Shown here one piece after another: positions 717-62,604 of a DNA stretch of 64,000 nt. The notes beneath the pieces are model-generated. The model searched no databases, was not told the origin of the DNA, and worked only from the letters and a program-made list of their open reading frames with translations. Position numbers and translations under genes: made by a program. Within the stretch, counting starts at the first letter, position 1. The number at the start of each line of letters is the position of its first letter. This DNA is from a virus: IMG/VR virus record IMGVR_UViG_3300030497_000009, one strand, 5' to 3'.

Positions 717-1286
717 ATGGCTATCAACTTATCTAAAGGTGGAAATATGAATTTAACGAAAGACAATCCTGGATTATCTAAGGTGACTGTTGGTCTTGGT
801 TGGGATAAGAATAAATTCGTTGGCCAAGCTTTTGACTTGGATGCATCGGCTACTTTAATTGGTGCGAACGGTAAACGTGTAAGCGATGAGCACTTTGTAT
901 ACTTTGGTAATCTGTCGTTCAAAGATGGCTCTGTTGCTCATACTGGGGACAACCTTACTGGTGAAGGTGATGGCGACGATGAGAAAATCAAAGTTGACCT
1001 GAAAGCTGTGCCAGCTGACGTAGAGAAGATTGCGATTGCTGTTTCTATCTACCAAGCTAAGGATCGTGGTAACCAAAACTTTGGTTCGGTTGAAAATGCG
1101 TTTATTCGTATCGTTGACGATGCTACTGGTGAAGAGCTAGTACATTACGATTTAGATGAGGACTACTCAACTGAATCTACTGTAATCTTTGGTGAACTTT
1201 ACCGTAACAACGGGGACTGGAAGTTCAAAGCTCTTGGTCAAGGTATCGTTGGAGAAATTAACGAACTAGTAGCATTCTTTGCTTAA
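717..1286 (+). CDS. terD: TerD-family stress protein
   Basis: [59 protein letters not shown] motifs; GGAGG RBS before ATG 717. Confidence 0.95.
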   Translation: MAINLSKGGNMNLTKDNPGLSKVTVGLGWDKNKFVGQAFDLDASATLIGANGKRVSDEHFVYFGNLSFKDGSVAHTGDNLTGEGDGDDEKIKVDLKAVPADVEKIAIAVSIYQAKDRGNQNFGSVENAFIRIVDDATGEELVHYDLDEDYSTESTVIFGELYRNNGDWKFKALGQGIVGEINELVAFFA

Positions 1287-1354
1287 GTAAACATCGGGCT
1301 TGTCTCGTACAAGCCCTTCCTATAAAACTATAAAAATATCTGGAGGTAACTATT

Positions 1355-1939
1355 ATGGTTGTAAACTTATCTAAAGGCGGACGCGTTGATTTAACAAAAG
1401 GAACTAACATCACAAAGGTTAAGGTAGCTCTTGGTTGGGACACGAATAAGTATGATGGCTCTGCTGACTTTGACTTGGACGTTGTAGCTTTCTTAGCTCA
1501 AGGTAATGGTAAAGTAAAAGGTGAAGCAGACTTCGTATTCTATAATAACTTGGTTCACGTATCTGGTGCGGTTGAGCACACTGGTGATAACTTAACCGGC
1601 TCTGGTGATGGTGATGACGAAGTAATCTATGTTGACTTCACAAAAGTGCCTGACCACGTTGAAAAGATTGCTTTCGCTGTAACGATTCACGAAGCTGACT
1701 CACGTCGCCAAAACTTTGGTATGGTATCTAACTCGTTTGTACGTGTGGACGATGTAACGAATAATGCGCAAGGGATTCCACTAGTAAACTTTGACCTTGG
1801 TGAAGACTTCTCGATTGAGACGAGCGTTGTAGTTTGTGAACTTTATAAACATGGTAACGATTGGAAGTTTAACGCGATTGGTGCAGGCTACTCAAACGGG
1901 CTTGTTGGCTTAGTAAGAGACTACGGGTTACAAGCTTAA
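1355..1939 (+). CDS. terD: TerD-family stress protein (paralog)
   Basis: [54 protein letters not shown] motifs. Confidence 0.95.
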
Positions 1940-1974
1940 TAATCAACTAGAAAGCTCTTTAAGGAGGTGATATC

Positions 1975-2085
1975 ATGGGTCTATTTATTGGATTAATCAT
2001 CGGTCTTGTATTAGGTGTTGTTATTGGAGATTACGCTGGTGCTGACATTAAGAAAGCGATTATGAATCACAAAAATAAACGATAA
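1975..2085 (+). CDS. 36-aa single-pass membrane peptide
   Basis: MGLFIGLIIGLVLGVVIGDYAG...; strong AAGGAGGTG RBS; below the ORF-track size cutoff. Confidence 0.7.
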   Translation: MGLFIGLIIGLVLGVVIGDYAGADIKKAIMNHKNKR

Positions 2086-2105
2086 GAGAATGGAGATATG
2101 TTGAC

Positions 2106-2846
2106 ATGGAAGTATATGTTGGAATAATAATCACGCTAGTTATCATGGAGGGGCTGTTGTCTTTTGACAACGCCTTGGTACTAGCTACTATGGCTGGTAA
2201 AATTAAGGATCCGAAGTTGCAAAAGAAAGCCCTAACTTATGGTATGGCTGGCGCGGTTGCGTTCCGTGCGCTGTTTATCTTCCTTGGTGTTGTCTTAATT
2301 AAGTTCTGGTGGCTAAAAGTATTGGGTGGGGCATACCTACTTAAGTTGGCTTATGATCACTTCTTTAAGAATGAAGATGAGGACGAGGATGGCGTACTAG
2401 ATAAATACCAAGATACGTTACTTCATAAGTTCTTACGTAAGTTTGGTGTTCATCTATCATTCTTCTGGTCAGTAATTATCTCCATTGAGCTTATGGACTT
2501 AGCTTTCTCAGTAGACTCGATCCTTGCGGCATTAGCTTTATCTGATAAATTCTGGGTGCTTTTAGTTGGTGGTGTGTTAGGTATTGCGATGATGCGTGGT
2601 GTCGCTGGCGTATTCATTAAGCTAATCGAGAGAGTTCCTGAAATGGAAACGACTGCATACCTGCTAATCGTAATTATCGCGGTGAAGATGTTACTAAGTA
2701 CGGTTCATAATATCGCTGGATTGTTTGGACATACGATGGTTGAGATTGAGATTGGCCACGGGTTATTCTTCGCTATCCTTGGTGCTACGTTCCTTGGTAC
2801 GTTCGTTGTACACTTTATCCGTAAGCCTAAAACTAAACAAGCATAA
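2106..2846 (+). CDS. terC: TerC-family membrane protein (YceF/YkoY-like)
   Basis: MEGLLSFDNALVLA and DLAFSVDSILAA signature motifs; multiple hydrophobic helices. Confidence 0.93.
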   Translation: MEVYVGIIITLVIMEGLLSFDNALVLATMAGKIKDPKLQKKALTYGMAGAVAFRALFIFLGVVLIKFWWLKVLGGAYLLKLAYDHFFKNEDEDEDGVLDKYQDTLLHKFLRKFGVHLSFFWSVIISIELMDLAFSVDSILAALALSDKFWVLLVGGVLGIAMMRGVAGVFIKLIERVPEMETTAYLLIVIIAVKMLLSTVHNIAGLFGHTMVEIEIGHGLFFAILGATFLGTFVVHFIRKPKTKQA

Positions 2847-2848
2847 TA

Positions 2849-2882
2849 AAAAACTCTGGCTGAAAAGTCAGAGTTTTTCTTT
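2849..2882. terminator. Bidirectional intrinsic terminator
   Basis: AAAAACTCTGGC-TGAAAA-GTCAGAGTTTTT. Confidence 0.8.
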
Positions 2883-2889
2883 GTCAACA

Positions 2890-2922
2890 GGCGTAAATTG
2901 TTGTGTAGAAGGCTTTTATTAG
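2890..2922 (+). promoter_or_regulatory. Phage-sigma (middle-like) promoter
   Basis: GGCGTA-N18-TTTTATTAG. Confidence 0.6.
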
Positions 2923-2950
2923 ATGTAATTATTAATAGGGAGGTAACGAA

Positions 2951-3244
2951 ATGGGACACTATGACTTTGTATACGAAACGCAAACGAACAAGGATATTAT
3001 GAAACAATTAGAGTGGTTAGAATCAAGAATGGATGTAGTTCAGCTTGAATTTGCTGACTTGAAGGTTGACGCTAAAAACGTTAGAACGCTTCATGGTAAG
3101 CGTGTGGTTAACGATGCTCTTAAGCAGGTTGAAAGAGATAGAGAAAAACTTAAAAAGAATATCAAGGATACTAAGGTACTCCTGACAAAGCACGATGATG
3201 GCGAGCAGATTACTTGGGCTGACTTACATGGAGGTAGAAGTTAA
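2951..3244 (+). CDS. Hypothetical coiled-coil protein
   Basis: ORF with GGGAGG RBS. Confidence 0.7.
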   Translation: MGHYDFVYETQTNKDIMKQLEWLESRMDVVQLEFADLKVDAKNVRTLHGKRVVNDALKQVERDREKLKKNIKDTKVLLTKHDDGEQITWADLHGGRS

Positions 3245-3618
3245 TGGGTGCTTATGATACTCCAACTCAAAAGTGTCCATACTGTGGCACTGAATGTGAA
3301 TGTGACTGGGTTGACGTAGGTGTTGGGATGGTTCAATGCGGACCGTACCACTGTGAGGTCTGTCACGCTAGTGAAATCGGACCTGAAAAGGGTAAATGGT
3401 ACAAGCTCGAAGAGGTTAACGGTGAATACAAAACTATTTGGCTTGAGGGCGCACCGTTTAACGATAACGAGAAGAAGTATGGTTGGTACGATCCTGAACG
3501 CGGTGGAAAGATTTCTCCATACGCGAACACCGTTGGAGGTAAGTTGGTTGACCACATAACTGCTAAAGAAGCCTATAACATAGGATTGCTAGATGAAAAG
3601 GAGATTGACAATGACTAA
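3244..3618 (+). CDS. Zinc-ribbon phage protein
   Basis: CPYC...CEVC motifs; translationally coupled. Confidence 0.7.
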   Translation: MGAYDTPTQKCPYCGTECECDWVDVGVGMVQCGPYHCEVCHASEIGPEKGKWYKLEEVNGEYKTIWLEGAPFNDNEKKYGWYDPERGGKISPYANTVGGKLVDHITAKEAYNIGLLDEKEIDND

Positions 3619-3802
3619 GGTAATTTTATATGTAACAGAAGATAACTTCTATGCGTACCGTTCAGGCACTGCGTTCCAAGGGTACTCTGACAGCCCTAAG
3701 ATACCAACGTTTGCTGTATTGGTTCCACCAGAAGCGATAAAAGATTACACGAAGAACTCTGGATATTTTATAGCAAAGGTACACCCAAGAGAAAAGTGGT
3801 AA
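3611..3802 (+). CDS. Hypothetical protein
   Basis: GGAG RBS before ATG 3611. Confidence 0.6.
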   Translation: MTKVILYVTEDNFYAYRSGTAFQGYSDSPKIPTFAVLVPPEAIKDYTKNSGYFIAKVHPREKW

Positions 3803-3815
3803 GGGAGAGATAGTT

Positions 3816-3932
3816 ATGTGTAATTGTAAACACCAAAGCCCAGTGGCTGATCATCGAGTAAAGTATGACGGAACGTTACGTGAAGTATACGTTTGCGAGA
3901 ACTGCGGTGAGGATATCGAAGAGGGCTTGTAA
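3816..3932 (+). CDS. 38-aa zinc-finger peptide
   Basis: MCNCKH...VYVCENCG; GGGAG RBS. Confidence 0.6.
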   Translation: MCNCKHQSPVADHRVKYDGTLREVYVCENCGEDIEEGL

Positions 3933-3948
3933 AAGCTCTCTTTTTCTT

Positions 3949-4035
3949 TTGACAAAAGTTGAATAAAACTGTTGAAATGTGTAATAATAAATAGTATGAT
4001 AAGTTTGTAAGATAAACCGAGTCATAAAAGGAGAG
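3949..4035 (+). promoter_or_regulatory. SigmaA-type early promoter with conserved leader (copy A)
   Basis: TTGAAA(3972)-N17-TATGAT(3995); TTGACA 23 bp upstream; leader GTAAGATAAACCGAGTCATAAAAGGAG. Confidence 0.8.
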
Positions 4036-4043
4036 GTTTTAAG

Positions 4044-4265
4044 ATGAAATATAAAAATGTAGCTGGTGTAAACGTAATGGTATTTGGTTCTGTGGAAGAA
4101 GCGCGTGGGTTTGTTAATAAGCGTAGTCAATTGGCTATCTTCTTCGCAGAAGAAACAGAAGTATATGTAAGCGTGGAGCTTGACGCGTTCAAGCTAGAAG
4201 TTGCAGGCTATCCAGAGATTCCAGTAAAACGCGATTATGATTTTGTGGGGGTGAACGAGCTATGA
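4044..4265 (+). CDS. Hypothetical early protein
   Basis: ORF directly after the early promoter leader and RBS. Confidence 0.75.
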   Translation: MKYKNVAGVNVMVFGSVEEARGFVNKRSQLAIFFAEETEVYVSVELDAFKLEVAGYPEIPVKRDYDFVGVNEL

Positions 4266-19095: not shown

Positions 19096-19129
19096 GGAGC
19101 AGGTAACTGCTTCCTTTCCTTTTATTAAG
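19096..19129 (+). promoter_or_regulatory. Phage-sigma (middle-like) promoter overlapping an inverted repeat
   Basis: GGAGCA-N18-TTTTATTAAG; GGAGCAG-GTAA-CTGCTTCC hairpin. Confidence 0.7.
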
Positions 19130-19145
19130 TATAAGATTTGAAAGG

Positions 19146-19415
19146 GTGAAAGCGATGTGGAAACTGTCTGTTGACGGTGTGGAAATTGGTACAGCGAAGA
19201 GTGTAAAAGCTACTCGATTTAACGAGCAGGGTAGAATGCCCATGCCTTCTCGATTTGGTAAAACGTCATTATCTGCTGAATTAACGATGTTAAACGCTAG
19301 AATGGCGTTCACAATGACACCTGTAATGGAACATAACTTTAAGTCGGTGATGCTACCGATACAAACTATGAACTACGCATCTAAGAAACGTAGTGAACTG
19401 CCTTGGCGTAAATAG
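19146..19415 (+). CDS. Hypothetical protein
   Basis: ORF after promoter. Confidence 0.55.
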   Translation: MKAMWKLSVDGVEIGTAKSVKATRFNEQGRMPMPSRFGKTSLSAELTMLNARMAFTMTPVMEHNFKSVMLPIQTMNYASKKRSELPWRK

Positions 19416-19433
19416 ACTAAGGAGGAGCTTTCC

Positions 19434-21086
19434 ATGGAAGAAGAGTTAAAGCCGATAACCGATTTTGATGGAAAAGTTTACACCATAGAAGAAGCACTAC
19501 AGAGACATAATGGATTCCTGTGGACTGTCGCTAAAAAATACCAAGCTTCTGGTAAAGAGTATGGGCTTGGAACGGACGACCTAAACAGCATCGCTAAAAT
19601 GGGTTTGGTAAAAGCCTTTAAGAAGTTCGATTCAGGTGCTGGTGTTAAGTTCATAACTTACATGAGTCGGTGTGCTGAGAATGAAGTCCTGATGGCTTTA
19701 CGTAATGGGGCTACAGCTACTGGTAAGTGGGGGCTAGCTCGTCATAGAGCAAAGGTGTTCTACGAGAAGTTTCCTGAACAACAACCAACGATTGAGAAAA
19801 TAATCGAAGCTACAGGCTGTGACTACAATGGTGCTGTTAAGGTTATTGACTACATGGTACGTAGGCACGGACAGTCACTAGATGCTGAGATGTCTGTCCA
19901 CAACGGTGAAGATAACATAACCTTTGGTGACATGGTTGGAAAGAACGCTGACTACACGAGAATCCATATAAGTGAATACTTTGAAGTCCTAGACACCCGT
20001 GAAAGGCAAATAGTCGATTTAATGATGGAAGATGTTCAGCAACATGAGATTGGTAAACGTCTTGGCGTCAGTCAGTCGTACGTTAGCCGGTTGATTGGTA
20101 GAATAAAATTTAAAATGGAGAAAGTCCAGAGAGGGGAAAGAGTAATGAAAAGACAGAACAACGATACTCAATATAAAAAAGCTATCATTGAGGAAGCTAG
20201 AAATCTATTGCGTTCAGGGTTAACTATTTCTCAGGTTGTGAAGGCTACTGGAATGCCCCAAGCTTCCGTTTATTACTATAATGGTCAGGTAGAACTAGAA
20301 AAGAAAAAGGCGAACGCTACAGCGAAACCTCAGGCTCCTAAGAAGGATCTACCGAAACCGAAAGCTGTAACGCCTGACGAGGTAGCGCAAGCGAAGCCAG
20401 TGAAAGAAACTGAAACCCTTCGTGAGAAGCATGTGATTCACGCTGGTAAGCTTAAAGATAATCCGATTGCTAACCTGCCTGCCATTATTGAGGATCTACG
20501 AAAACAGCTTACTACTGCCCAGAATGAAGCGAAGTCTCACAAAGCTGAATTAGATAACGCACAGAAAATCGTGTTGTCTTATAAAGAGAAGGAAGAAAGT
20601 CGCAAGAAGCTTATCGAGAAACAAGGAGACCACATCGTTGAACTTAAGACCAACGTTAATACTCTAATCGCACAGGAGTTAGACTCCATGAAGAAATTAA
20701 ATGAGCTAGAAGAACGTCATAAAAAGGCTTTAAAACGTGAAGATGCCAAAGTCAAAGAAGCTGCTGACTTACAAGTACGTTGGGAGAAAGCTCAAGCACT
20801 TATCGAGAAACAGTTTGCTGAACTTGAAACAGCTAACGAAGCTGTGTTGGTTGCTGACCAACGAGTTGAAGAAGCTCACGCCAAGATTGCTAAGCTGGAA
20901 GCGAAGCTTGAGGATTATAACAAACCTTGTGATCTGGTTGAAGAGAAAGAACCTGACTTACGTGTTAAGTACTTTAAAACTGACTGGGAGAGAACAGCTC
21001 GTGAGAACGGGAGAATAATTACTGAACTCCATCACAAAGTGGAAGAACTAAAAGCGATTGCTAAAAAGGCGGTTAACTTACTATGA
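19434..21086 (+). CDS. Sigma-70-family sigma factor fused to an extra HTH and a long coiled coil
   Basis: Region 2 (DDLNSIAKMGLVKAFKKFD...KFITYMSRCAENEV), region 4 (RERQIV...QQHEIGKRLGVSQSYVSRL), second HTH (LTISQVVKATGMPQASVYYY), then about 250 aa of heptads. Confidence 0.85.
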   Translation: MEEELKPITDFDGKVYTIEEALQRHNGFLWTVAKKYQASGKEYGLGTDDLNSIAKMGLVKAFKKFDSGAGVKFITYMSRCAENEVLMALRNGATATGKWGLARHRAKVFYEKFPEQQPTIEKIIEATGCDYNGAVKVIDYMVRRHGQSLDAEMSVHNGEDNITFGDMVGKNADYTRIHISEYFEVLDTRERQIVDLMMEDVQQHEIGKRLGVSQSYVSRLIGRIKFKMEKVQRGERVMKRQNNDTQYKKAIIEEARNLLRSGLTISQVVKATGMPQASVYYYNGQVELEKKKANATAKPQAPKKDLPKPKAVTPDEVAQAKPVKETETLREKHVIHAGKLKDNPIANLPAIIEDLRKQLTTAQNEAKSHKAELDNAQKIVLSYKEKEESRKKLIEKQGDHIVELKTNVNTLIAQELDSMKKLNELEERHKKALKREDAKVKEAADLQVRWEKAQALIEKQFAELETANEAVLVADQRVEEAHAKIAKLEAKLEDYNKPCDLVEEKEPDLRVKYFKTDWERTARENGRIITELHHKVEELKAIAKKAVNLL

Positions 21087-23194: not shown

Positions 23195-23535
23195 CGGTCT
23201 TCACCATTTCGAAGTACAAAGTCACCAAGGTCTTCAACGTAGTCTCCCCACCCCATATGGGGTAGCTTCTCTGGTAAATCAAGATTCATTTCGTCAACAA
23301 TAATTTCTTTTAGCCCTTCGAAGTCCAGCGTATCAATATATTCCTCATCGTAAACCTTAACGCTAGTGTAAGGCTCGTTATTTAGGAATTTGATAACTTC
23401 TTCGATAGGTAGTTTAAAGAAATTAAACTGACCTTCGTCACCTCTAGCTTCCAGAGTATAGTGGGCGTGGTTTCTAAGAACCGTCTCCCCAACTACTAAC
23501 ACCGCACCTTCAAGATTAATTCTGTAAACTGCCAT
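23191..23535 (-). CDS. Hypothetical early protein
   Basis: Follows early promoter copy D. Confidence 0.75.
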   Translation of the reverse strand: MAVYRINLEGAVLVVGETVLRNHAHYTLEARGDEGQFNFFKLPIEEVIKFLNNEPYTSVKVYDEEYIDTLDFEGLKEIIVDEMNLDLPEKLPHMGWGDYVEDLGDFVLRNGEDR

Positions 23536-23544
23536 TTAAAATCT

Positions 23545-23630
23545 CCCCTTTTCTGACTCGATTTATCTTACAAACCAATCATATAACTATTATACTCACA
23601 TTTCAACAGTTTATTCCTCAAATTTACAAA
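23545..23630 (-). promoter_or_regulatory. SigmaA-type early promoter with conserved leader (copy D)
   Basis: Minus strand TTGAAA(23606-23601)-N17-TATGAT(23583-23578); leader GTAAGATAAATCGAGTCAGAAAAGGGGAG. Confidence 0.8.
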
Positions 23631-23661
23631 ATAAAAACACCCTCCGGAGAGGGTGCCTTTC

Positions 23662-24031: not shown

Positions 24032-24298
24032 TTATCGTACCTCCATTACGTGGTCTAAGAATAGTGATTCGTTTAGCGCGTACTTAGCGTAAGTATCCTC
24101 ATCGTGCGGTTTCGTATACTTATAAACAATCCAGCGTTCTTCCTTAGCACTAGGATCGTCCTGCGCGATATACTCCGGATCAGCGTACTCTTCCACCACG
24201 TCTTCGTAGCTTGAGATTCTCACAATTTGAACCTCTCCACTAGAGATATCACAGAAACCGTCGCTTGGCTCGATATAAAATTTTTGCCCTCTTTCCAC
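24032..24298 (-). CDS. Hypothetical early protein
   Basis: Follows early promoter copy E. Confidence 0.75.
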   Translation of the reverse strand: MERGQKFYIEPSDGFCDISSGEVQIVRISSYEDVVEEYADPEYIAQDDPSAKEERWIVYKYTKPHDEDTYAKYALNESLFLDHVMEVR

Positions 24299-24304
24299 TT
24301 AAAC

Positions 24305-24392
24305 CCTCTCCTTTTATGACTCAGATTAACTTACAAACTAATCATATAACTATTATATCCACAATTCAACAGTTTATTCCTAAAATTGTCAA
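24305..24392 (-). promoter_or_regulatory. SigmaA-type early promoter with conserved leader (copy E)
   Basis: TTGACA, then 23 bp later TTGAAT-N17-TATGAT; 33 nt of leader identical to copy B. Confidence 0.8.
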
Positions 24393-24418
24393 AAAGAAAA
24401 GCACCCACTTTACGGGTG

Positions 24419-25771
24419 CTACATATCACGGGATTTCACGCCCACCGTGCCAAGGCGTTTTACCTTATTCCAGTTATGTTTGTCTTTACTTAAGAAGTAG
24501 TTGACCGAACCATAAGCGAAAATAATAGGATCCATCAGGCGGAACGTGAACGTTTCAAATAGTGAGAAGAAGAAAAGCTTCACATAACTCATCTTATAGA
24601 ACGAATACCCGTAACGACTAGCGATTTGGTACGCAATCAATCTTGAACCCACTTGGAATACGAAGCTGAGAGCCACCAACGTTAAGAAATACGCGTCGTA
24701 GGTCTTAAAGATAACGATTAGAGGGAACGCACACAGCGTAATAATCCCCGTAACACCTTGCATTAACGAGTCCCAAAGTAGAACCAAGACAAACTTAAAC
24801 GTAAATCCACCCGTAAAGAAAGCTTTCTTATACTTGACCATGCAATCGATGAAACCTTTTTGCCATCTAGTCTTTTGCTTGAAAGAGTCTCTAAAGTTTT
24901 CTGGAACTTCCGTATAACAAACGGCTTCTGGAATAAAGATAAGCTTTCCTTTTCTGAACTTCTGCTTAATGTACTGCTGTAGGTTAAGTGTGATTTCCAT
25001 ATCTTCTCCGAGCGTCTTTTTGTATCCACCAATATCGTAAAGCACGTTACGTCTGAAGGCACCAAAGGCACCTGATACGATTGCTAGAACGTTTATGGAA
25101 GCTTGGGTACTCTTACGTAAATAAAACGAATTGAGGTAATCTGAAAGCTGATAAAGCACAAGCCCCTTGCCTTTAAACTTTTTCTTGCCTGCTTCGTCGA
25201 ATATCTGACCCACGTGAACCATACCGCCAGCACCAATGACTTCTTCATCCTGAAAGCTTTGGTTAATATAGTGAAGCGCGTTTTCCTCTAGTACGCTATC
25301 CGCGTCCAACGTAATAACAACATCCCCACTAGCGTAGTCAATAGCGGCATTTAGGGAGTCGGCTTTACCACCGTTCACTTTATCAATGAGGATCATGTTA
25401 GGGTACTTACGAGATTTGTAGACTGTGATTGTTGGGGCATAAATTAGCTTTCCACTAGGATTCTCTGGGATAGGAACAGCATCTAGGAGCTTTTCAAGTA
25501 GAGGTAACGTTTGGTCACTAGAACCATCGTTTACAAACACAGCTTCGTAGTTATCATAATTTAGAGCCAACATACTTTCCAAACAGTTTTCCACAACGGC
25601 TTCTTCGTTATAAGCCGGTATCAGGATCGAGATTTTAGACTGCTTTAGCGTGGTGTCAAGAGGGGAAACCCCTCTCTTTTTGAACAACGGGTACGCGATA
25701 TAAAAGAGTTGGAACGCCAAAAACGATAGAAACAGAAACAAACCAATATACATATTAACAGACATATTCAT
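24419..25771 (-). CDS. Processive family-2 glycosyltransferase (IcaA/PgaC/NodC-like polysaccharide synthase)
   Basis: IPAYNEE, VNDGSSD, NGGKADSLN, LDADS, SGAFGAFRR, GEDME, QKTRW (QxxRW); one N-terminal and several C-terminal TM helices. Confidence 0.92.
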   Translation of the reverse strand: MNMSVNMYIGLFLFLSFLAFQLFYIAYPLFKKRGVSPLDTTLKQSKISILIPAYNEEAVVENCLESMLALNYDNYEAVFVNDGSSDQTLPLLEKLLDAVPIPENPSGKLIYAPTITVYKSRKYPNMILIDKVNGGKADSLNAAIDYASGDVVITLDADSVLEENALHYINQSFQDEEVIGAGGMVHVGQIFDEAGKKKFKGKGLVLYQLSDYLNSFYLRKSTQASINVLAIVSGAFGAFRRNVLYDIGGYKKTLGEDMEITLNLQQYIKQKFRKGKLIFIPEAVCYTEVPENFRDSFKQKTRWQKGFIDCMVKYKKAFFTGGFTFKFVLVLLWDSLMQGVTGIITLCAFPLIVIFKTYDAYFLTLVALSFVFQVGSRLIAYQIASRYGYSFYKMSYVKLFFFSLFETFTFRLMDPIIFAYGSVNYFLSKDKHNWNKVKRLGTVGVKSRDM

Positions 25772-26532
25772 TATTTATACACCCTCACATAGTCAATTTT
25801 GAAATCCACAGGAAACTTTTGGTTCTTAGCTGGAGCGCCAGCCCATGTTCCGCCAACCGCGGTATTAATATAGAGATACATCGGAACATTAGGCGACTTC
25901 TTGGACACGAAGGTAACTTTTCCGTCGAGCGTAAAGGTTACTTTATCCTTTCGCCACTCCACACCGTATACGTGGAAGTCATCTGTCAAGTTCGCTTTCG
26001 AGGTAACACCAGTGAAGTCTCGCTTGTGTTTACCGCGCTCTTGGTAGTGAATGACGTTCCACAGTTCGTTCGGCTTTTCAGCTAGCAATTCGGCAAAGTC
26101 AATTTCAGGATACGGCTCTCCATTCTCTGGTAGCATCCAAATAGCTGGTAGCAACCCCTTTCCTTTAGGGAACTTCGCTCTTACTTCGATTTTACCATAC
26201 TTTATCGGGGCTTTTCCTTGGGTGGTAATCGCACTGGAAGTATACGTAAAGCCCTTATAGTTTTCTTTCTTCGTTTCTAGTGACAAAATACCTTTGTTCA
26301 CAGTAACATTTTTCGGGACGTAGCGGTGTAGCCTTCCGTGGTCTTTCCAACCTTCATCTAGCAGATTCCATCTTTTCTTATTGAGATTGTCAAAGTTGTC
26401 TTCCCAAACGAGGTTACTATCTTTCTTCTCGATAACGTGTTCAACTTTTGGAGCCGGTGTAGGATCTTCGACTTTCGTAGCACACGCGGTTAACATAGCG
26501 ACAGATGACATAACTAACAGAACTTTTTTCAA
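25771..26532 (-). CDS. GH16 glycoside hydrolase lipoprotein
   Basis: Lipobox LTAC; YGKIEVRAK.P.GKGL.PAIW; catalytic EIDFAE (ExDxxE); FHVYGVEW; IDYVRVY; TAATG overlap with the GT2 gene. Confidence 0.92.
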   Translation of the reverse strand: MKKVLLVMSSVAMLTACATKVEDPTPAPKVEHVIEKKDSNLVWEDNFDNLNKKRWNLLDEGWKDHGRLHRYVPKNVTVNKGILSLETKKENYKGFTYTSSAITTQGKAPIKYGKIEVRAKFPKGKGLLPAIWMLPENGEPYPEIDFAELLAEKPNELWNVIHYQERGKHKRDFTGVTSKANLTDDFHVYGVEWRKDKVTFTLDGKVTFVSKKSPNVPMYLYINTAVGGTWAGAPAKNQKFPVDFKIDYVRVYK

Positions 26533-26574: not shown

Positions 26575-26631
26575 AACTGACTATACTACTATTCTATTCA
26601 CAGTTCAACACTTTATTCCGAAATTTGTCAA
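26575..26631 (-). promoter_or_regulatory. SigmaA-type early promoter (copy F) driving GH16-GT2
   Basis: TTGACA, then 23 bp later TTGAAC-N17-TATAGT. Confidence 0.75.
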
Positions 26632-26764
26632 AAAGTGACAACCAGCGTCGTTAAGCTGTGAGAACGTCTTTTCTCTATATACTATTCAAAGAGAATCGAC
26701 GTGTTACAAATAGCTGGAAAGTTAGTTCTTTAGCCCTAGTGAACAACCTGTACAACAAAAGTTC

Positions 26765-46890: not shown

Positions 46891-47961
46891 ATGACAGTTA
46901 AAAAGTTTGAAAATAATCCGCACCTAGAGGGAACCAGAGACGAATATTTGGAAAGTCATATAAAGATGGTATATAAAGTAGCGCAGAGCTTTTACGCGCG
47001 AGGTGAGGAATTTGGGTTAGACACCGACGATGTTGACCAAATTGGGATGATTGGGTATATTAAAGCTTACGATAACTATGACCCAACCAACGCGAAACTT
47101 AAGGGCAGAGTAACAAAGTTTACAACTTATGCTTATCCAAAGATAAAGGGCGAAATACTACGATACTTTGCGAACGTGGGGCAGGGTGGGATGAAAGTTT
47201 CGAGAACAGTAATTGACTTAGCGTTGAAGCTACGTTATTCAGAAAGAACATATAGTACAGCTAGCGATGTTATGGAAGATTACGATGTTTCCGAGTGGAT
47301 GGCATGCGACGCTCTTGAAATAGTTCATCACGGTAAATACACAATTTCGGCTGAGTCACCGATTACAACCGGATTGTCTGGTGATGAAGAACTACGCATA
47401 ATGGACGTAATGGAAGGGGATCTTAATGTTCACTCAATCGTTTTAAATGAATTTTTAAGTACGTTGACTTACAATCAGCGACGAATTGTTGAGTTGCGGT
47501 TTATCCACTTTTACACACAGGCAGAAGTTGGAGAAATTCTGGGTATCACACAAGCCCACGTTTCGAGGGTTGAGAAAGCGGTACGAGAAATTACTGCAAC
47601 TTGGCTTGAGTTCGGGTACACGGCAACTTATCTAAAACCAGAAACATATCTTTTTGATAAGATGCAACGAGAACGAATTGAAAAGCGTGAAGCTGAGAAG
47701 CAAGCGAAACTTGCGAAACCAAAGCCTGTTAGAAAGGGAAGACCCATCCGTGGCGACATCGAGCTGGCCAGAGAGCTTATGATGAACTCAGATTTGTCAC
47801 CGAGAGAAATTCACCTACAAACAAGAGTGTCATACCATATCGTGTTAAAGCTTGACAAAGAGCTACGCACTAAGGCTAAACGCAAGAAGGTTAAAACGCG
47901 TGTTGCGAAAGAACGTTATGAAAAGCTACATTCTGAGGTGGCAGCGTCACGTGAAGCCTAA
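46891..47961 (+). CDS. Sigma-70-family sigma factor (SigF/SigG-like) with C-terminal basic HTH extension
   Basis: DDVDQIGMIGYIKAYDNYD...KFTTYAYPKIKGEILRY; TQAEVGEILGITQAHVSRVE; extra HTH LSPREIHLQTRVSYHIV. Confidence 0.87.
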   Translation: MTVKKFENNPHLEGTRDEYLESHIKMVYKVAQSFYARGEEFGLDTDDVDQIGMIGYIKAYDNYDPTNAKLKGRVTKFTTYAYPKIKGEILRYFANVGQGGMKVSRTVIDLALKLRYSERTYSTASDVMEDYDVSEWMACDALEIVHHGKYTISAESPITTGLSGDEELRIMDVMEGDLNVHSIVLNEFLSTLTYNQRRIVELRFIHFYTQAEVGEILGITQAHVSRVEKAVREITATWLEFGYTATYLKPETYLFDKMQRERIEKREAEKQAKLAKPKPVRKGRPIRGDIELARELMMNSDLSPREIHLQTRVSYHIVLKLDKELRTKAKRKKVKTRVAKERYEKLHSEVAASREA

Positions 47962-48954: not shown

Positions 48955-48980
48955 GGGGAGCCGTGAGCTCCTCTTTTTTA
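48955..48980 (+). terminator. Intrinsic terminator
   Basis: GGGGAGC-CGTGA-GCTCCTC plus T-tract. Confidence 0.7.
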
Positions 48981-48985
48981 TTTAT

Positions 48986-49070
48986 TTGACAAAATGAGGA
49001 ATAAACTGTTGAATTGTGTATAAACTAGTAGTATGATAAGTTTGTAAGTTAATCTGAGTCATAAAAGGAG
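48986..49070 (+). promoter_or_regulatory. SigmaA-type early promoter with conserved leader (copy B)
   Basis: TTGACA(48986), TTGAAT(49009)-N17-TATGAT(49032). Confidence 0.8.
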
Positions 49071-49073
49071 AAG

Positions 49074-49937
49074 ATGGAAATGGAAAAACGTAAAGAGGAA
49101 CTTTTAACGAAAATTCAAAATTTATTAAACACAACTACTGATAAAGGTGCTAGTGAAGCAGAAGCCCAAAGCGCAATTTTGTTGGCGCAAAAGTTAATGG
49201 CGAAACACGGTTTGGAAACGTCTGACGTTGAAGCTAGTGGTGAACCAGTATCGAAAGAGGTTGCAGAAGCTGCTGGCCAAGATAAAGGTGGGGTGCTACA
49301 ATGGTGGGAGAAGAACCTTGCGAAAATTATTGCTGACAACTTCCGATGCTACACTTTTACGCGTGGGTATGGTAGACGTTACTTTATTGTATTTATGGGG
49401 TTGAAGGAAGATACGGAAATCGCGAAGAACATCTTTAAATTCGCTTCTGCTCAGATTGAACACCATGCTCGCCAATATCGTCGCTCTCGCAAGAAAGAGC
49501 TTGAGAAGCAACTCCCGAAAGATTTCAAGAAGTTCACGCTTGACCAACTAAAAGACTTCGCGATTGACATCGATGTTCCTTGGAGAAGAGTTGACTCCGC
49601 GCTTGATTACGATACAGACGCGATGAAGCGAAAATACTTAACGAGCTACATTAAAGAAAAGCTTGGACTCAACATAGATGGTGTGGCGTTACGAAACGAC
49701 TACGTGAGTGGATTCCTTAAAGGGCTAGGCGATAAGCTACGTGAACAACAAAAAGCCAACGAAGCAGAGTGGGGATTGGTACTTGTTAAAGATACAGACG
49801 TTGTTGCCAAGTACGAATCGATGAACTTTACGAAGGGTAAAGCTTCCAAAGTTTCGAGTAGTGGTGACGCAGAAGCGTATAGTGCCGGTGTGAAGCAGGG
49901 TAAAGCCTTTAGTAGCGCGTCTGGCGAGTTAGAATAA
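49074..49937 (+). CDS. DUF2786-domain protein
   Basis: KIQNLL......EAEAQSA...AQKLMAKHGL; LAKIIADNFRC; ..F.G..ED; Y..G...G C-terminus. Confidence 0.8.
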   Translation: MEMEKRKEELLTKIQNLLNTTTDKGASEAEAQSAILLAQKLMAKHGLETSDVEASGEPVSKEVAEAAGQDKGGVLQWWEKNLAKIIADNFRCYTFTRGYGRRYFIVFMGLKEDTEIAKNIFKFASAQIEHHARQYRRSRKKELEKQLPKDFKKFTLDQLKDFAIDIDVPWRRVDSALDYDTDAMKRKYLTSYIKEKLGLNIDGVALRNDYVSGFLKGLGDKLREQQKANEAEWGLVLVKDTDVVAKYESMNFTKGKASKVSSSGDAEAYSAGVKQGKAFSSASGELE

Positions 49938-50043: not shown

Positions 50044-50235
50044 ATGGCACAGAAGTTAACGTTTGAACAGAAGATAAAAGCAGAGCAGATCATGATGTAC
50101 ACATACATGGATTACCATTTAGCAATATTGCACGAAGCTATTGAAAAAGGTGACGCAGAAGCGCAAACCTTACAGCTTGGACAACTAGAGAAGACAAGAG
50201 AACGGTTAATTGAACTTGGTTATTTCACAGCTTGA
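50044..50235 (+). CDS. Small helical Bacillus-type hypothetical protein
   Basis: DYHLAILHEAI.KGD......LE..RERL; preceded by a GATATT box. Confidence 0.6.
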   Translation: MAQKLTFEQKIKAEQIMMYTYMDYHLAILHEAIEKGDAEAQTLQLGQLEKTRERLIELGYFTA

Positions 50236-50325
50236 CAAAATGTAGGAAAAACTGTTGAAATGTAGAGAATAAACAATTATACTTGAACTATGTTAAATTA
50301 ACCGAGTCGAAAAAGGAGAGGTTAT
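50232..50325 (+). promoter_or_regulatory. SigmaA-type early promoter with conserved leader (copy C)
   Basis: TTGACA(50232), TTGAAA(50255)-N17-TATACT(50278); leader CCGAGTCGAAAAAGGAGAGG. Confidence 0.8.
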
Positions 50326-59991: not shown

Positions 59992-62604
59992 ATGGCACCA
60001 AGAAATGGATTAGTACCCGTTCAGCGTACCGTAACACGTCATGGGGTAACGTTTCAAACTACAGTTTGGATTAAACCTAAACATTCTAACAGCGTTCAGC
60101 ATGGTAGTCACGTACAAGTACCAACTTGGAACTTTAGTTCTTCAGCTGACCTAAAGAATGAAGTTGACCGAATTAATAAAGTAAAAGACCGTTCAGAGCG
60201 TCGTATCCTGAAAGAAAACCTTCTTGACCATATCGAAAACCACATGGGCGTTAAGTGGCAAAAGGTAGCGGATAATGAAGACCGTGCGTTTGCGAGAAAC
60301 ACGATGAAAGCCCTTTCAGCTGCGAAGAAACATCTTGATAGCCAACCTGCTACTCCAGCGCAACCTGCCCCTTCTCAGCCGGCTCAACAGGCACCGGCTG
60401 GTAATGGTAAGATGGGTATTACGAAGCAACCAGGAAAAGATTACGTAATGGACAGAGATACATCGAAGAAGATGGCTCGTGACTTCCGTGACCAACACGG
60501 TATGGACGAAGTTGTTAAGATGCTAAAAGACAACGGGATTACGTGGAACGAAGTTCCTGATGCAGGTCCGAATAACATGCGTGCGTTACGTGCGTTAGCG
60601 AGCTTTATGCGTAAGGGTGGACAACTTGGAGCAACAGCGCAAGCTACACCTCAACAGAATCCAGCACAGCCGGCTCCGGTTTTAAATAACCCAAACCAAC
60701 CAATGCAAAAGAAATCGAAGTATGAAAAGGACTCGATTCAGCACGATTACGAACAAGCGAAACCTCATCATAAGCTTATTGGCTTGGCTACTGGGGTTAT
60801 GCCTTTAGATGATGAAACGGCTACGTATCTTAAAGGACTTATTGACACTGGCCAAATGGGTTTATTGGGTGAAGATGGCGGTGGAGCTGATTACAAACTT
60901 CCGAAAGCCCTTAATAACGAACTTGATCCTGTCATCAGTTCCATTAACAGAGGTGAAAATCATCTTGGTGACCAAGCTTCGTTCTTGTACGCGAAACAGA
61001 TGTTTGAGGGCACTCAATATGAAGCAAACTTCAAGGAATATGAAAAGAGCAGGGATAGCTTCAAGACTAAATACCGTGAAAAAGCCGATGAAATGATGAG
61101 TGAAGGTGTAAAGGGCATCGAAGCTTCCAAAAAACTTTTAGAAGCACTAAACGAAGTGGACAAAGACTGGCTTGACCTGTCAGGTGAAGATTTCCTTGAG
61201 GAACTCCATATTAAGATAGGCAACCTTAAAGGCAAAAGTGACACTGAGATTGATGAAGCTTGGGATAAGTATGGGATGGATGACCTTTTTGCGCAAGGGC
61301 GTACATTCATGGATAGCAACCATTCGATTATAGAAGTCTTAGTAAGAGCTGGGATAACAAACGCAAACGCGTTTAGTACTGTAGAGAGCATGCTAACTGG
61401 TCCTGGCCAAACCAACATGGCTTCTATTAGACAGGCGTTGGTTAGTGGTTCATTAACAAAACGACAAATCTTTGCACGTATGGAGAACGACATGGGTATG
61501 ACAATAAGCTTGAGAGGTTCTTCACAACCAATGACTAACAACCTTGCGAAACGTTGGAATACTGGAGCCACCGGTTTGCTACAACAAGCTGTTCATGAGC
61601 ACGTACACGGTCCTGTTACCAGTTTTTCAGGAAGTTCACAACCTATCCCATTTAAACAAGACGAGTTCTTAAAGATGTGTGATGAAGCACTTGCTGATTT
61701 AGCTCCAATGAAAACTCCGGAAGGTCAGCATGTAGAGTACAACATTCAAGTAGCTCGTGGACTTCGATACGCTTATGATTTTGGAAATATCAAAAGAGTT
61801 CCGCACACACCTGTGCCTATGGATGACTTTCTAAGTGGACGTAGTAATGAGAACATTATCAAAACGCACATTGGGGCTGAGCGTCAAAAGTCCGAGAAGT
61901 CTAAGCAGAATTACATTAACAAAGTTAAAGAGAAACAAAATAAAAACTTTGGCAAGATACTTCGTGATGGCGTTGACCCAACAAAAGTTGATTTCCCAGA
62001 TGCTGCTGACGTTAAAGAGGTTGTTAAAACAACCCTTATGAAAGTTGATGCTGCTGAAACGGCTAAAGTTGCGGCAAATGTAGCCCGTTCTCATGATAAC
62101 GCCAACCACGGCTCTTTCAGAACGAAGGTTCATGGGGTTTACCGTGTTAAACGTATTTCCTCCGAAGAAAAATATCAGAAGGTCAGCAAAGATATTGGTA
62201 ATGAAGGGTTTTATTATCATGGAACGTCTTTTGATACAGCACAAAAGATTCTAGGTATGACCGGTGGATTCAAAGTCTTCACAGCTGCTGACGGTAACAA
62301 AATTAAAGCTGGAAGTATGCTAGGCTACGGTATTTATCTTGCTAAACAGTCTTCTAAATCAATGCAGTATGTAGGCTCTGGTTTCCGTTCTGGAAGTCGT
62401 GGTGTACTATTCGTTTGTAAAGCGGCACTTGGTAATGTGGTTCAAACGCGTTCCCGTGGCTGTGCAGCCAACCAACCGATTATGAACCGTGCGTCTACAG
62501 ACACAGTCTTTATGGATAAGCCTGACGTTATCAACCCAGAGTGGGCTGTTAAACGAGCTGAGCAAGCTGTACCAAGACTTTGGATTGACGCAGAACGTGT
62601 CTGA
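59992..62604 (+). CDS. 870-aa multidomain protein with C-terminal PARP-like (H-Y-E) ADP-ribosyltransferase domain
   Basis: SHDNANHGSFRTKVHGVYRVKR..EEKY...GNEGFYYHGT ... GSMLGYGIYLA..SSKS.QY ... GVLFVCKAALG ... NPEW; two N-terminal copies of the shared module. Confidence 0.85.
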   Translation: MAPRNGLVPVQRTVTRHGVTFQTTVWIKPKHSNSVQHGSHVQVPTWNFSSSADLKNEVDRINKVKDRSERRILKENLLDHIENHMGVKWQKVADNEDRAFARNTMKALSAAKKHLDSQPATPAQPAPSQPAQQAPAGNGKMGITKQPGKDYVMDRDTSKKMARDFRDQHGMDEVVKMLKDNGITWNEVPDAGPNNMRALRALASFMRKGGQLGATAQATPQQNPAQPAPVLNNPNQPMQKKSKYEKDSIQHDYEQAKPHHKLIGLATGVMPLDDETATYLKGLIDTGQMGLLGEDGGGADYKLPKALNNELDPVISSINRGENHLGDQASFLYAKQMFEGTQYEANFKEYEKSRDSFKTKYREKADEMMSEGVKGIEASKKLLEALNEVDKDWLDLSGEDFLEELHIKIGNLKGKSDTEIDEAWDKYGMDDLFAQGRTFMDSNHSIIEVLVRAGITNANAFSTVESMLTGPGQTNMASIRQALVSGSLTKRQIFARMENDMGMTISLRGSSQPMTNNLAKRWNTGATGLLQQAVHEHVHGPVTSFSGSSQPIPFKQDEFLKMCDEALADLAPMKTPEGQHVEYNIQVARGLRYAYDFGNIKRVPHTPVPMDDFLSGRSNENIIKTHIGAERQKSEKSKQNYINKVKEKQNKNFGKILRDGVDPTKVDFPDAADVKEVVKTTLMKVDAAETAKVAANVARSHDNANHGSFRTKVHGVYRVKRISSEEKYQKVSKDIGNEGFYYHGTSFDTAQKILGMTGGFKVFTAADGNKIKAGSMLGYGIYLAKQSSKSMQYVGSGFRSGSRGVLFVCKAALGNVVQTRSRGCAANQPIMNRASTDTVFMDKPDVINPEWAVKRAEQAVPRLWIDAERV

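Follow-up and report, generated by a model that had tools for sequence, protein, structure and literature searches.

A predicted, conserved internal translation start at the sigma-tail junction of long sporulation-like sigma factor genes in phages of Bacillales

The window analyzed here is a 64,000-nucleotide stretch of viral DNA (IMG/VR record IMGVR_UViG_3300030497_000009), and the locus under study is a single open frame on its plus strand that joins a sigma factor to a second helix-turn-helix (HTH), a linker and a long coiled coil. Shine-Dalgarno (SD) sites were scored in kcal/mol against an anti-SD that we take to be the end of the B. subtilis 16S rRNA. The features of the gene are as follows.

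19096..19128 (+), copy of a promoter-like motif, GGAG-N19-23-TTTTATTAR, upstream of the ORF at 19146-19415 and the sigma gene; putative promoter
19420-19427, the sigma gene's own SD, AGGAGGAG, -11.1 kcal/mol
19434..21086 (+), full-length ORF, sigma - HTH - linker - coiled coil, 550 aa, 62.8 kDa
19500..19706 (+), sigma region 2, residues 23-91, with the 2.3-2.4 segment TYMSRCAENEVLM of SigE/SigK type
19983..20102 (+), sigma region 4, residues 184-223, with the SigE-type recognition helix SQSYVSRL
20130..20147 (+), internal SD and ATG: GAGGGG at 20131-20136, 8-nt spacer and in-frame ATG at 20145 (M238)
20145..21086 (+), predicted nested product, HTH - linker - coiled coil, 313 aa, 35.7 kDa, pI 9.1
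20178..20324 (+), second HTH of three helices, residues 249-297
20325..20474 (+), K/P/A-rich disordered linker, residues 298-347
20475..20921 (+), long helix, residues 348-496, with 348-467 modeled as a coiled-coil dimer, parallel and in register
20976..21080 (+), C-terminal helix, residues 515-549, with a conserved IAKKAVNLL at its end

An earlier note made from the DNA letters had placed sigma regions 2 and 4 in the N-terminal part, and this was borne out: Pfam Sigma70_r2 (PF04542) matches residues 23-91 at 33.1 bits (cut-off 24) and Sigma70_r4 (PF04545) residues 184-223 at 26.2 bits (cut-off 24.1), while a TIGR02937 score of 66.5 (cut-off 42.9) assigns the protein to the sigma-70 family. 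Pfam matches to the second HTH (residues 247-282) were weak; a profile built from homologous tails, this one included, matched it with an E value of 3e-12, and AlphaFold2 modeled it as three helices (249-297) with a pLDDT of about 95. Using a 66-sequence alignment, AlphaFold2 returned the sigma part, the HTH, the disordered linker, a helix of 149 residues (348-496) and a final one (515-549), at a pTM of 0.30, meaning that no fixed packing is predicted between these parts. The HTH, linker and coiled coil do lie in frame with the sigma factor in one 550-aa open frame, as had been claimed, but the coiled coil, put at ~250 aa, proved shorter, its helical part (348-496 plus 515-549) amounting to about 185 residues.

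The protein matches PHROG 351 (E value of 9e-43 over residues 16-391), and its best matches among solved sequences are the 243-aa Bacillus-type sigma factor 1l0o, which we take to be SigF (E value of 1e-12), and SigK (8vjl, E value of 8e-9). It scores far below the NCBIfam cut-offs for the host SigB/F/G (TIGR02980, 80.3 against 234), SigK (67.4 against 299) and SigE (62.8 against 349) families. Roughly 90 residues lie between regions 2 and 4, with helices at 98-143, and align to SigF/G-type proteins; the protein is thus no group 4 (ECF) sigma factor, a group with regions 2 and 4 only. Being closest to the sporulation sigma factors, and encoded by a phage that probably infects spore-forming Bacillota, it ranks among the phage sporulation-like sigma factors. 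The closest described family comprises PHROG 351 and 21612, with gp168 and gp169 of phage Eldridge and Bcp25/26 of phage Bcp1 (10.1101/2021.11.12.468384; PMC2716549). Eldridge gp169 (506 aa) shares the family, the order of sigma factor, HTH and tail, and the start site at the junction, but its tail ends in a small strand-helix-strand-like module where that of the 550-aa protein ends in a coiled coil. In the host SigF/G-type clusters retrieved, the protein stops no more than about 20 residues past region 4, in contrast to the long tail seen here.

The promoter-reading motifs also set the protein apart. Most relatives carry the SigF/G-type motifs TYAVPMIxGE and SQVQVSR, whereas regions 2.4 and 4.2 of the 550-aa protein and of a 576-aa relative (67% identity) are, unlike those of the closest described family, of SigE/K type (TYMSRCxENE and SQSY(V/I)SRL) and match a verified SigE locus and the solved SigK. 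The SigE/K-type 2.4 pattern was found in only 4 of 152 proteins, and on the strength of these motifs the 550-aa sigma factor may read mother-cell-type promoters.

Extra domains after region 4 have been seen elsewhere. ECF41, ECF42 and ECF56 are group 4 sigma factors with sensing domains (SnoaL, TPR). They likewise extend beyond region 4 (PMC8999054, 10.1101/2020.01.30.927608), but the 550-aa protein differs in its SigF/G-like scaffold, its DNA-binding HTH and an oligomerizing tail that is predicted to be made, probably, in free form as well.

The fusion is genuine. An identical 550-aa protein occurs on 4 contigs of 50-200 kb, one of them 156 kb long, and the 67% relative is fused too, on 6 ENA and JGI contigs; an assembly error or a stop near codon 238 is thereby rejected. 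The contigs of one run match the entire window, and this run may be the window's source. No close short (split) relative of the 550-aa protein was found. Two apparent splits did not hold: P0003, a tail-only protein of 308 aa, begins 5 bases from a contig end, and in phage QCM8 the annotated split comes from a frameshift at an A-run of the HTH sequence that is probably erroneous. Scans of IMG/VR with the protein alone gave no match, and a genome scan returned mostly host sigma factors.

Long forms are common. Among the 150 nearest representatives about half are longer than 330 aa, so that length alone is not unusual among sigma factors of Bacillales phages, and annotated examples besides Eldridge gp169 include proteins of Moonbeam (514 aa), BC01 (566), Stills (618), MaeS (480) and LysYB1 (453). 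The earlier note's statement that phage SigF/G/K-like sigma factors usually measure about 200-260 aa therefore describes only about half of the family, forms of 450-620 aa being known. The tails are diverse, yet most start with a related HTH (the HTH profile matches 29 of 35), and their C-terminal end is a coiled coil, a small module of strand-helix-strand pattern or the HTH itself. The model of the small module from other family members was weak (pLDDT 71, one helix), and comparison of the tail with solved structures and the Atlas gave no firm match. Three long sigma factors (L022, L036, L272; about 2500-3700) carry a non-HTH tail with a conserved IG(L/V)NAxGIH domain, for which no Pfam or PHROG match was found in similar proteins, and also have junction starts. 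In L192 (about 980-3900), an HTH-only sigma gene adjoins that of a longer protein with apparently two sigma domains. The long sigma of L010 (MT362618.1), labeled 'Microcystis phage MaeS', is of Bacillus-phage type, and the host label may merit checking.

The main point of the locus, overlooked in the earlier note, is a predicted translation start at the junction between sigma factor and tail. Directly after region 4, the GAGGGG and its properly spaced ATG score -12.6 kcal/mol, stronger than the gene's own start and than the median of the own starts of the 64 ORFs in the window (-10.7 kcal/mol), and the strongest among 476 internal in-frame starts in those ORFs. The site is kept in the 67% relative, in which an indel relative to the 550-aa protein begins right behind the ATG, resembling a gene start. 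Both close relatives retain the GGG codon, a rare one (11% of Gly codons). Synonymous conservation at the junction of the close pair (2/13 against 65/195) comes from a very small sample, and synonymous recoding of the 550-aa gene by itself gave no significant effect (p 0.16). We consider translation from M238 very probable.

The junction start recurs across the family. Sigma loci were grouped at 70% identity, yielding 28 clusters with tails of at least 120 aa and 7 HTH-only clusters. In 22 of the 28 long-tail clusters (about 4.6 expected by position) the strongest internal start falls in the first 50 codons past region 4, and the junction start ranks first or second in 27. A score of -8 kcal/mol or stronger is reached at the junction in 25 of 28 long-tail clusters and in none of the 7 HTH-only clusters; among out-of-frame starts of that stretch, 3 of 27 reach it. 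Synonymous recoding weakens the junction sites (mean of -7.2 against -10.5 kcal/mol, combined p 5e-7), although the clusters are related and such p-values are too small, overstating the certainty. The site is spelled by different amino acids (RGE, KGE, REE, KEE, QES). Eldridge gp169 has it, at rank 1 of 25; Eldridge gp168 does not, and neither does a second sigma gene of the window (46891-47961). In a hold-out set chosen in advance, the site was present in 3 of the 4 long proteins and absent from 2 of the 3 short ones. The short exception has a small terminal module, and the second sigma, with its 123-aa tail, breaks a rule based on tail length; 'HTH plus terminal module' is the better rule, picked after the fact. 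One hold-out protein and one cluster lack the start codon at the junction. With an in-frame start, a ribosome-binding site of its own and conservation beyond protein constraint, the tail has the attributes of a putative nested in-frame gene. The long-tail fusion is widespread, and no earlier description of it was found; the conserved internal start, a computational result, is the stronger finding.

What such a start might serve can be sketched. Ribosomes starting at codon 1 would make the sigma-HTH-coiled-coil fusion (63 kDa) and those starting at M238 a free HTH-coiled-coil module (36 kDa). Both products share the coil and could pair with each other, and the long and short forms are proposed to do so through it. 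A sigma factor on host RNA polymerase would then carry a dimeric HTH pair, offering extra DNA contacts near chosen promoters; in a Bacillales host these would most probably be phage promoters or host promoters of sporulation type. Output would be tuned by how much of the short form is made relative to the long one, and dimers of the free tail could hold the same sites with no polymerase attached. We presume that the two forms pair and that the HTH binds DNA, and the targets are likewise presumed; we consider the chances of this nested two-product locus evenly balanced. In its favor are the M238 site, which outscores both the gene's own start and every other internal site in the window; the junction starts of the long clusters, absent from the 7 HTH-only clusters; the hold-out results, the HTH-module genes that stand separately in some phages and the indel right behind the ATG; and the homodimer model together with the activity of Eldridge gp169 as a sigma factor in vivo. 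No operator site for the second HTH was identified, which counts against it. Modeling lends support to the dimerization suggested in the earlier note: a parallel coiled-coil homodimer over residues 348-467 scored 0.51 against 0.00 for the best control, with pLDDT of at least 76 and at least 69% of contacts agreeing between runs. Of 30 solved pairs 20 attained the score mark, as did 1 of 23 single chains, and coiled coils pass dimer models easily, which limits the weight of the 0.51. Tethering through the second HTH is plausible. The other suggested role, a built-in anti-sigma shutting the factor off, is weakened, since expression of Eldridge gp169 in B. subtilis switched on sporulation genes and lowered spore yield by 99% (10.1101/2021.11.12.468384); its long tail does not silence the sigma factor.

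Three other explanations bear on the same observations. The short product could be an inhibitor or independent repressor that poisons dimers or blocks DNA sites and so damps or times the sigma fusion, as RepR' does with RepR. The same internal-start evidence applies to this reading, the opposing roles of RepR and RepR' of pIGRK give it a precedent (PMC6854812), and stand-alone HTH-coiled-coil proteins occur in Bacillota (feature-based leads only; PHROG 8794). We rate it a lesser possibility: it overlaps the two-product locus set out above, differing chiefly in sign, and by itself leaves unexplained why the tail is fused in about 27 of 30 module-bearing clusters. A single product is unlikely; the SD-like sequence would then be a remnant or would simply result from Gly/Glu/Lys codons, and the tail would act in cis, as tether or built-in anti-sigma. 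Known regulatory extensions of ECF sigma factors (PMC8999054) speak for it, as do the recoded mean, by which amino acids alone account for part of the signal, and the two cases without a junction start codon; against it stand a properly spaced start codon in nearly all long forms, codons that favor the SD beyond the protein's need, the retained GGG codon and the absence of the site from HTH-only forms.

Least likely of all, in our estimate, is tolerated read-through, by which the tail would be an ordinary downstream gene overlapping the sigma end, its stop lost and the fused product without special role. In short sigma genes the SD of the next gene often does overlap the same spot, and on a quick tree with weak support the long forms lie interspersed with the short ones (18 changes against 20.7 when shuffled, with well-supported branches forcing at least 3), which, like the diversity of the tails, fits this account and is compatible with repeated fusion and splitting. 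However, the unrelated genes that usually lie downstream of short forms do not appear as tails, most of which match one HTH profile. Nor are two ORFs the rule among homologs, a check that the earlier note had proposed: the HTH module is a separate downstream gene in three short clusters (L205, L047, L251) and fused in about 27, whereas random frames would leave at most one third in frame. HTH-only forms, moreover, keep the fusion without an internal start, so the sigma-attached HTH is retained by itself. That the continuous frame and the internal start are both kept suggests that the fused and the predicted free product both matter.

One ORF with an internal start whose short form is the C-terminal part has parallels in RepR/RepR' of pIGRK (PMC6854812), Fha-L/Fha-S of Vibrio (PMC13389060) and gp1/gp11 of filamentous phages (PMC5408679). 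These were shown at the protein level and none is a sigma factor, while the M238 start is predicted. A literature search, covering mainly papers outside subscription, found nothing relevant on a sigma-tail fusion with a nested partner, a regulatory design for which we found no description; a term search of Schwartz et al. (10.1101/2021.11.12.468384) and Schuch and Fischetti (PMC2716549) gave no mention of a C-terminal tail. We speculate, with rather less confidence than for this single locus, that Bacillota phage sigma factors form an undescribed gene-in-gene class, in which a self-association module would always go with a free HTH tail that pairs with the sigma fusion and serves RNA polymerase as a swappable second DNA-reading head, and the sporulation block by gp169 may depend on a hidden product. 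Phage sporulation-like sigma factors are the main proposed route for phage control of host dormancy and have been treated as plain SigF/G copies. Should a second DNA-binding head be present in about half of them, and a hidden protein be made by many, the 99% drop in spore yield may reflect two proteins, and the differing regulons of tandem paralogs could in part be explained.

The DNA most likely comes from a Spounavirinae-type Herelleviridae phage with a Bacillales host, as its terminase shares 80% identity with the terminase of Lysinibacillus phage LysYB1 and 76% with that of YungSlug; the sequencing runs containing the DNA are plant and rhizosphere metagenomes. The second sigma gene (46891-47961, +) encodes a 356-aa sporulation-like sigma with HTH, 26% identical to the 550-aa protein, whose 123-aa basic tail holds the HTH only and lacks a junction start. 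Like the LysYB1 long sigma, this gene is found a few genes downstream of the terminase. The GGAG-N19-23-TTTTATTAR motif, which presumably resembles the SPO1 middle promoters, is probably a phage-specific promoter; it occurs in 10 copies in the window (0.07 expected), including upstream of both sigma genes.

4384, 10242, 11061, 12393, 16654, 19096, 28936, 30912, 44466, 46828 (+), copies of GGAG-N19-23-TTTTATTAR

Repeated SigA-like promoter blocks containing TTGACA lie at 3936-4049, 48973-49086 and 50232-50323 (+; families D5, D7, D13), and an intergenic repeat of 61-106 nt, probably a promoter, recurs in a minus-strand gene block at 23532-23637, 24295-24400 and 26575-26635 (families D3, D6). 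A GT2 glycosyltransferase gene (24419-26532, -) adjoins a GH16 glycoside hydrolase gene on the opposite strand, a pair also present in the relative L001 and a possible host-surface-modifying cassette. A poly-gamma-glutamate hydrolase gene (PF05908; 21652-22293, +), preceded by a YozD-like gene, is missing at the same position in L001. An 870-aa protein (59992-62604, +) occurs only in YungSlug, LysYB1/2 and Nachito and is annotated in YungSlug as a PARP polymerase.
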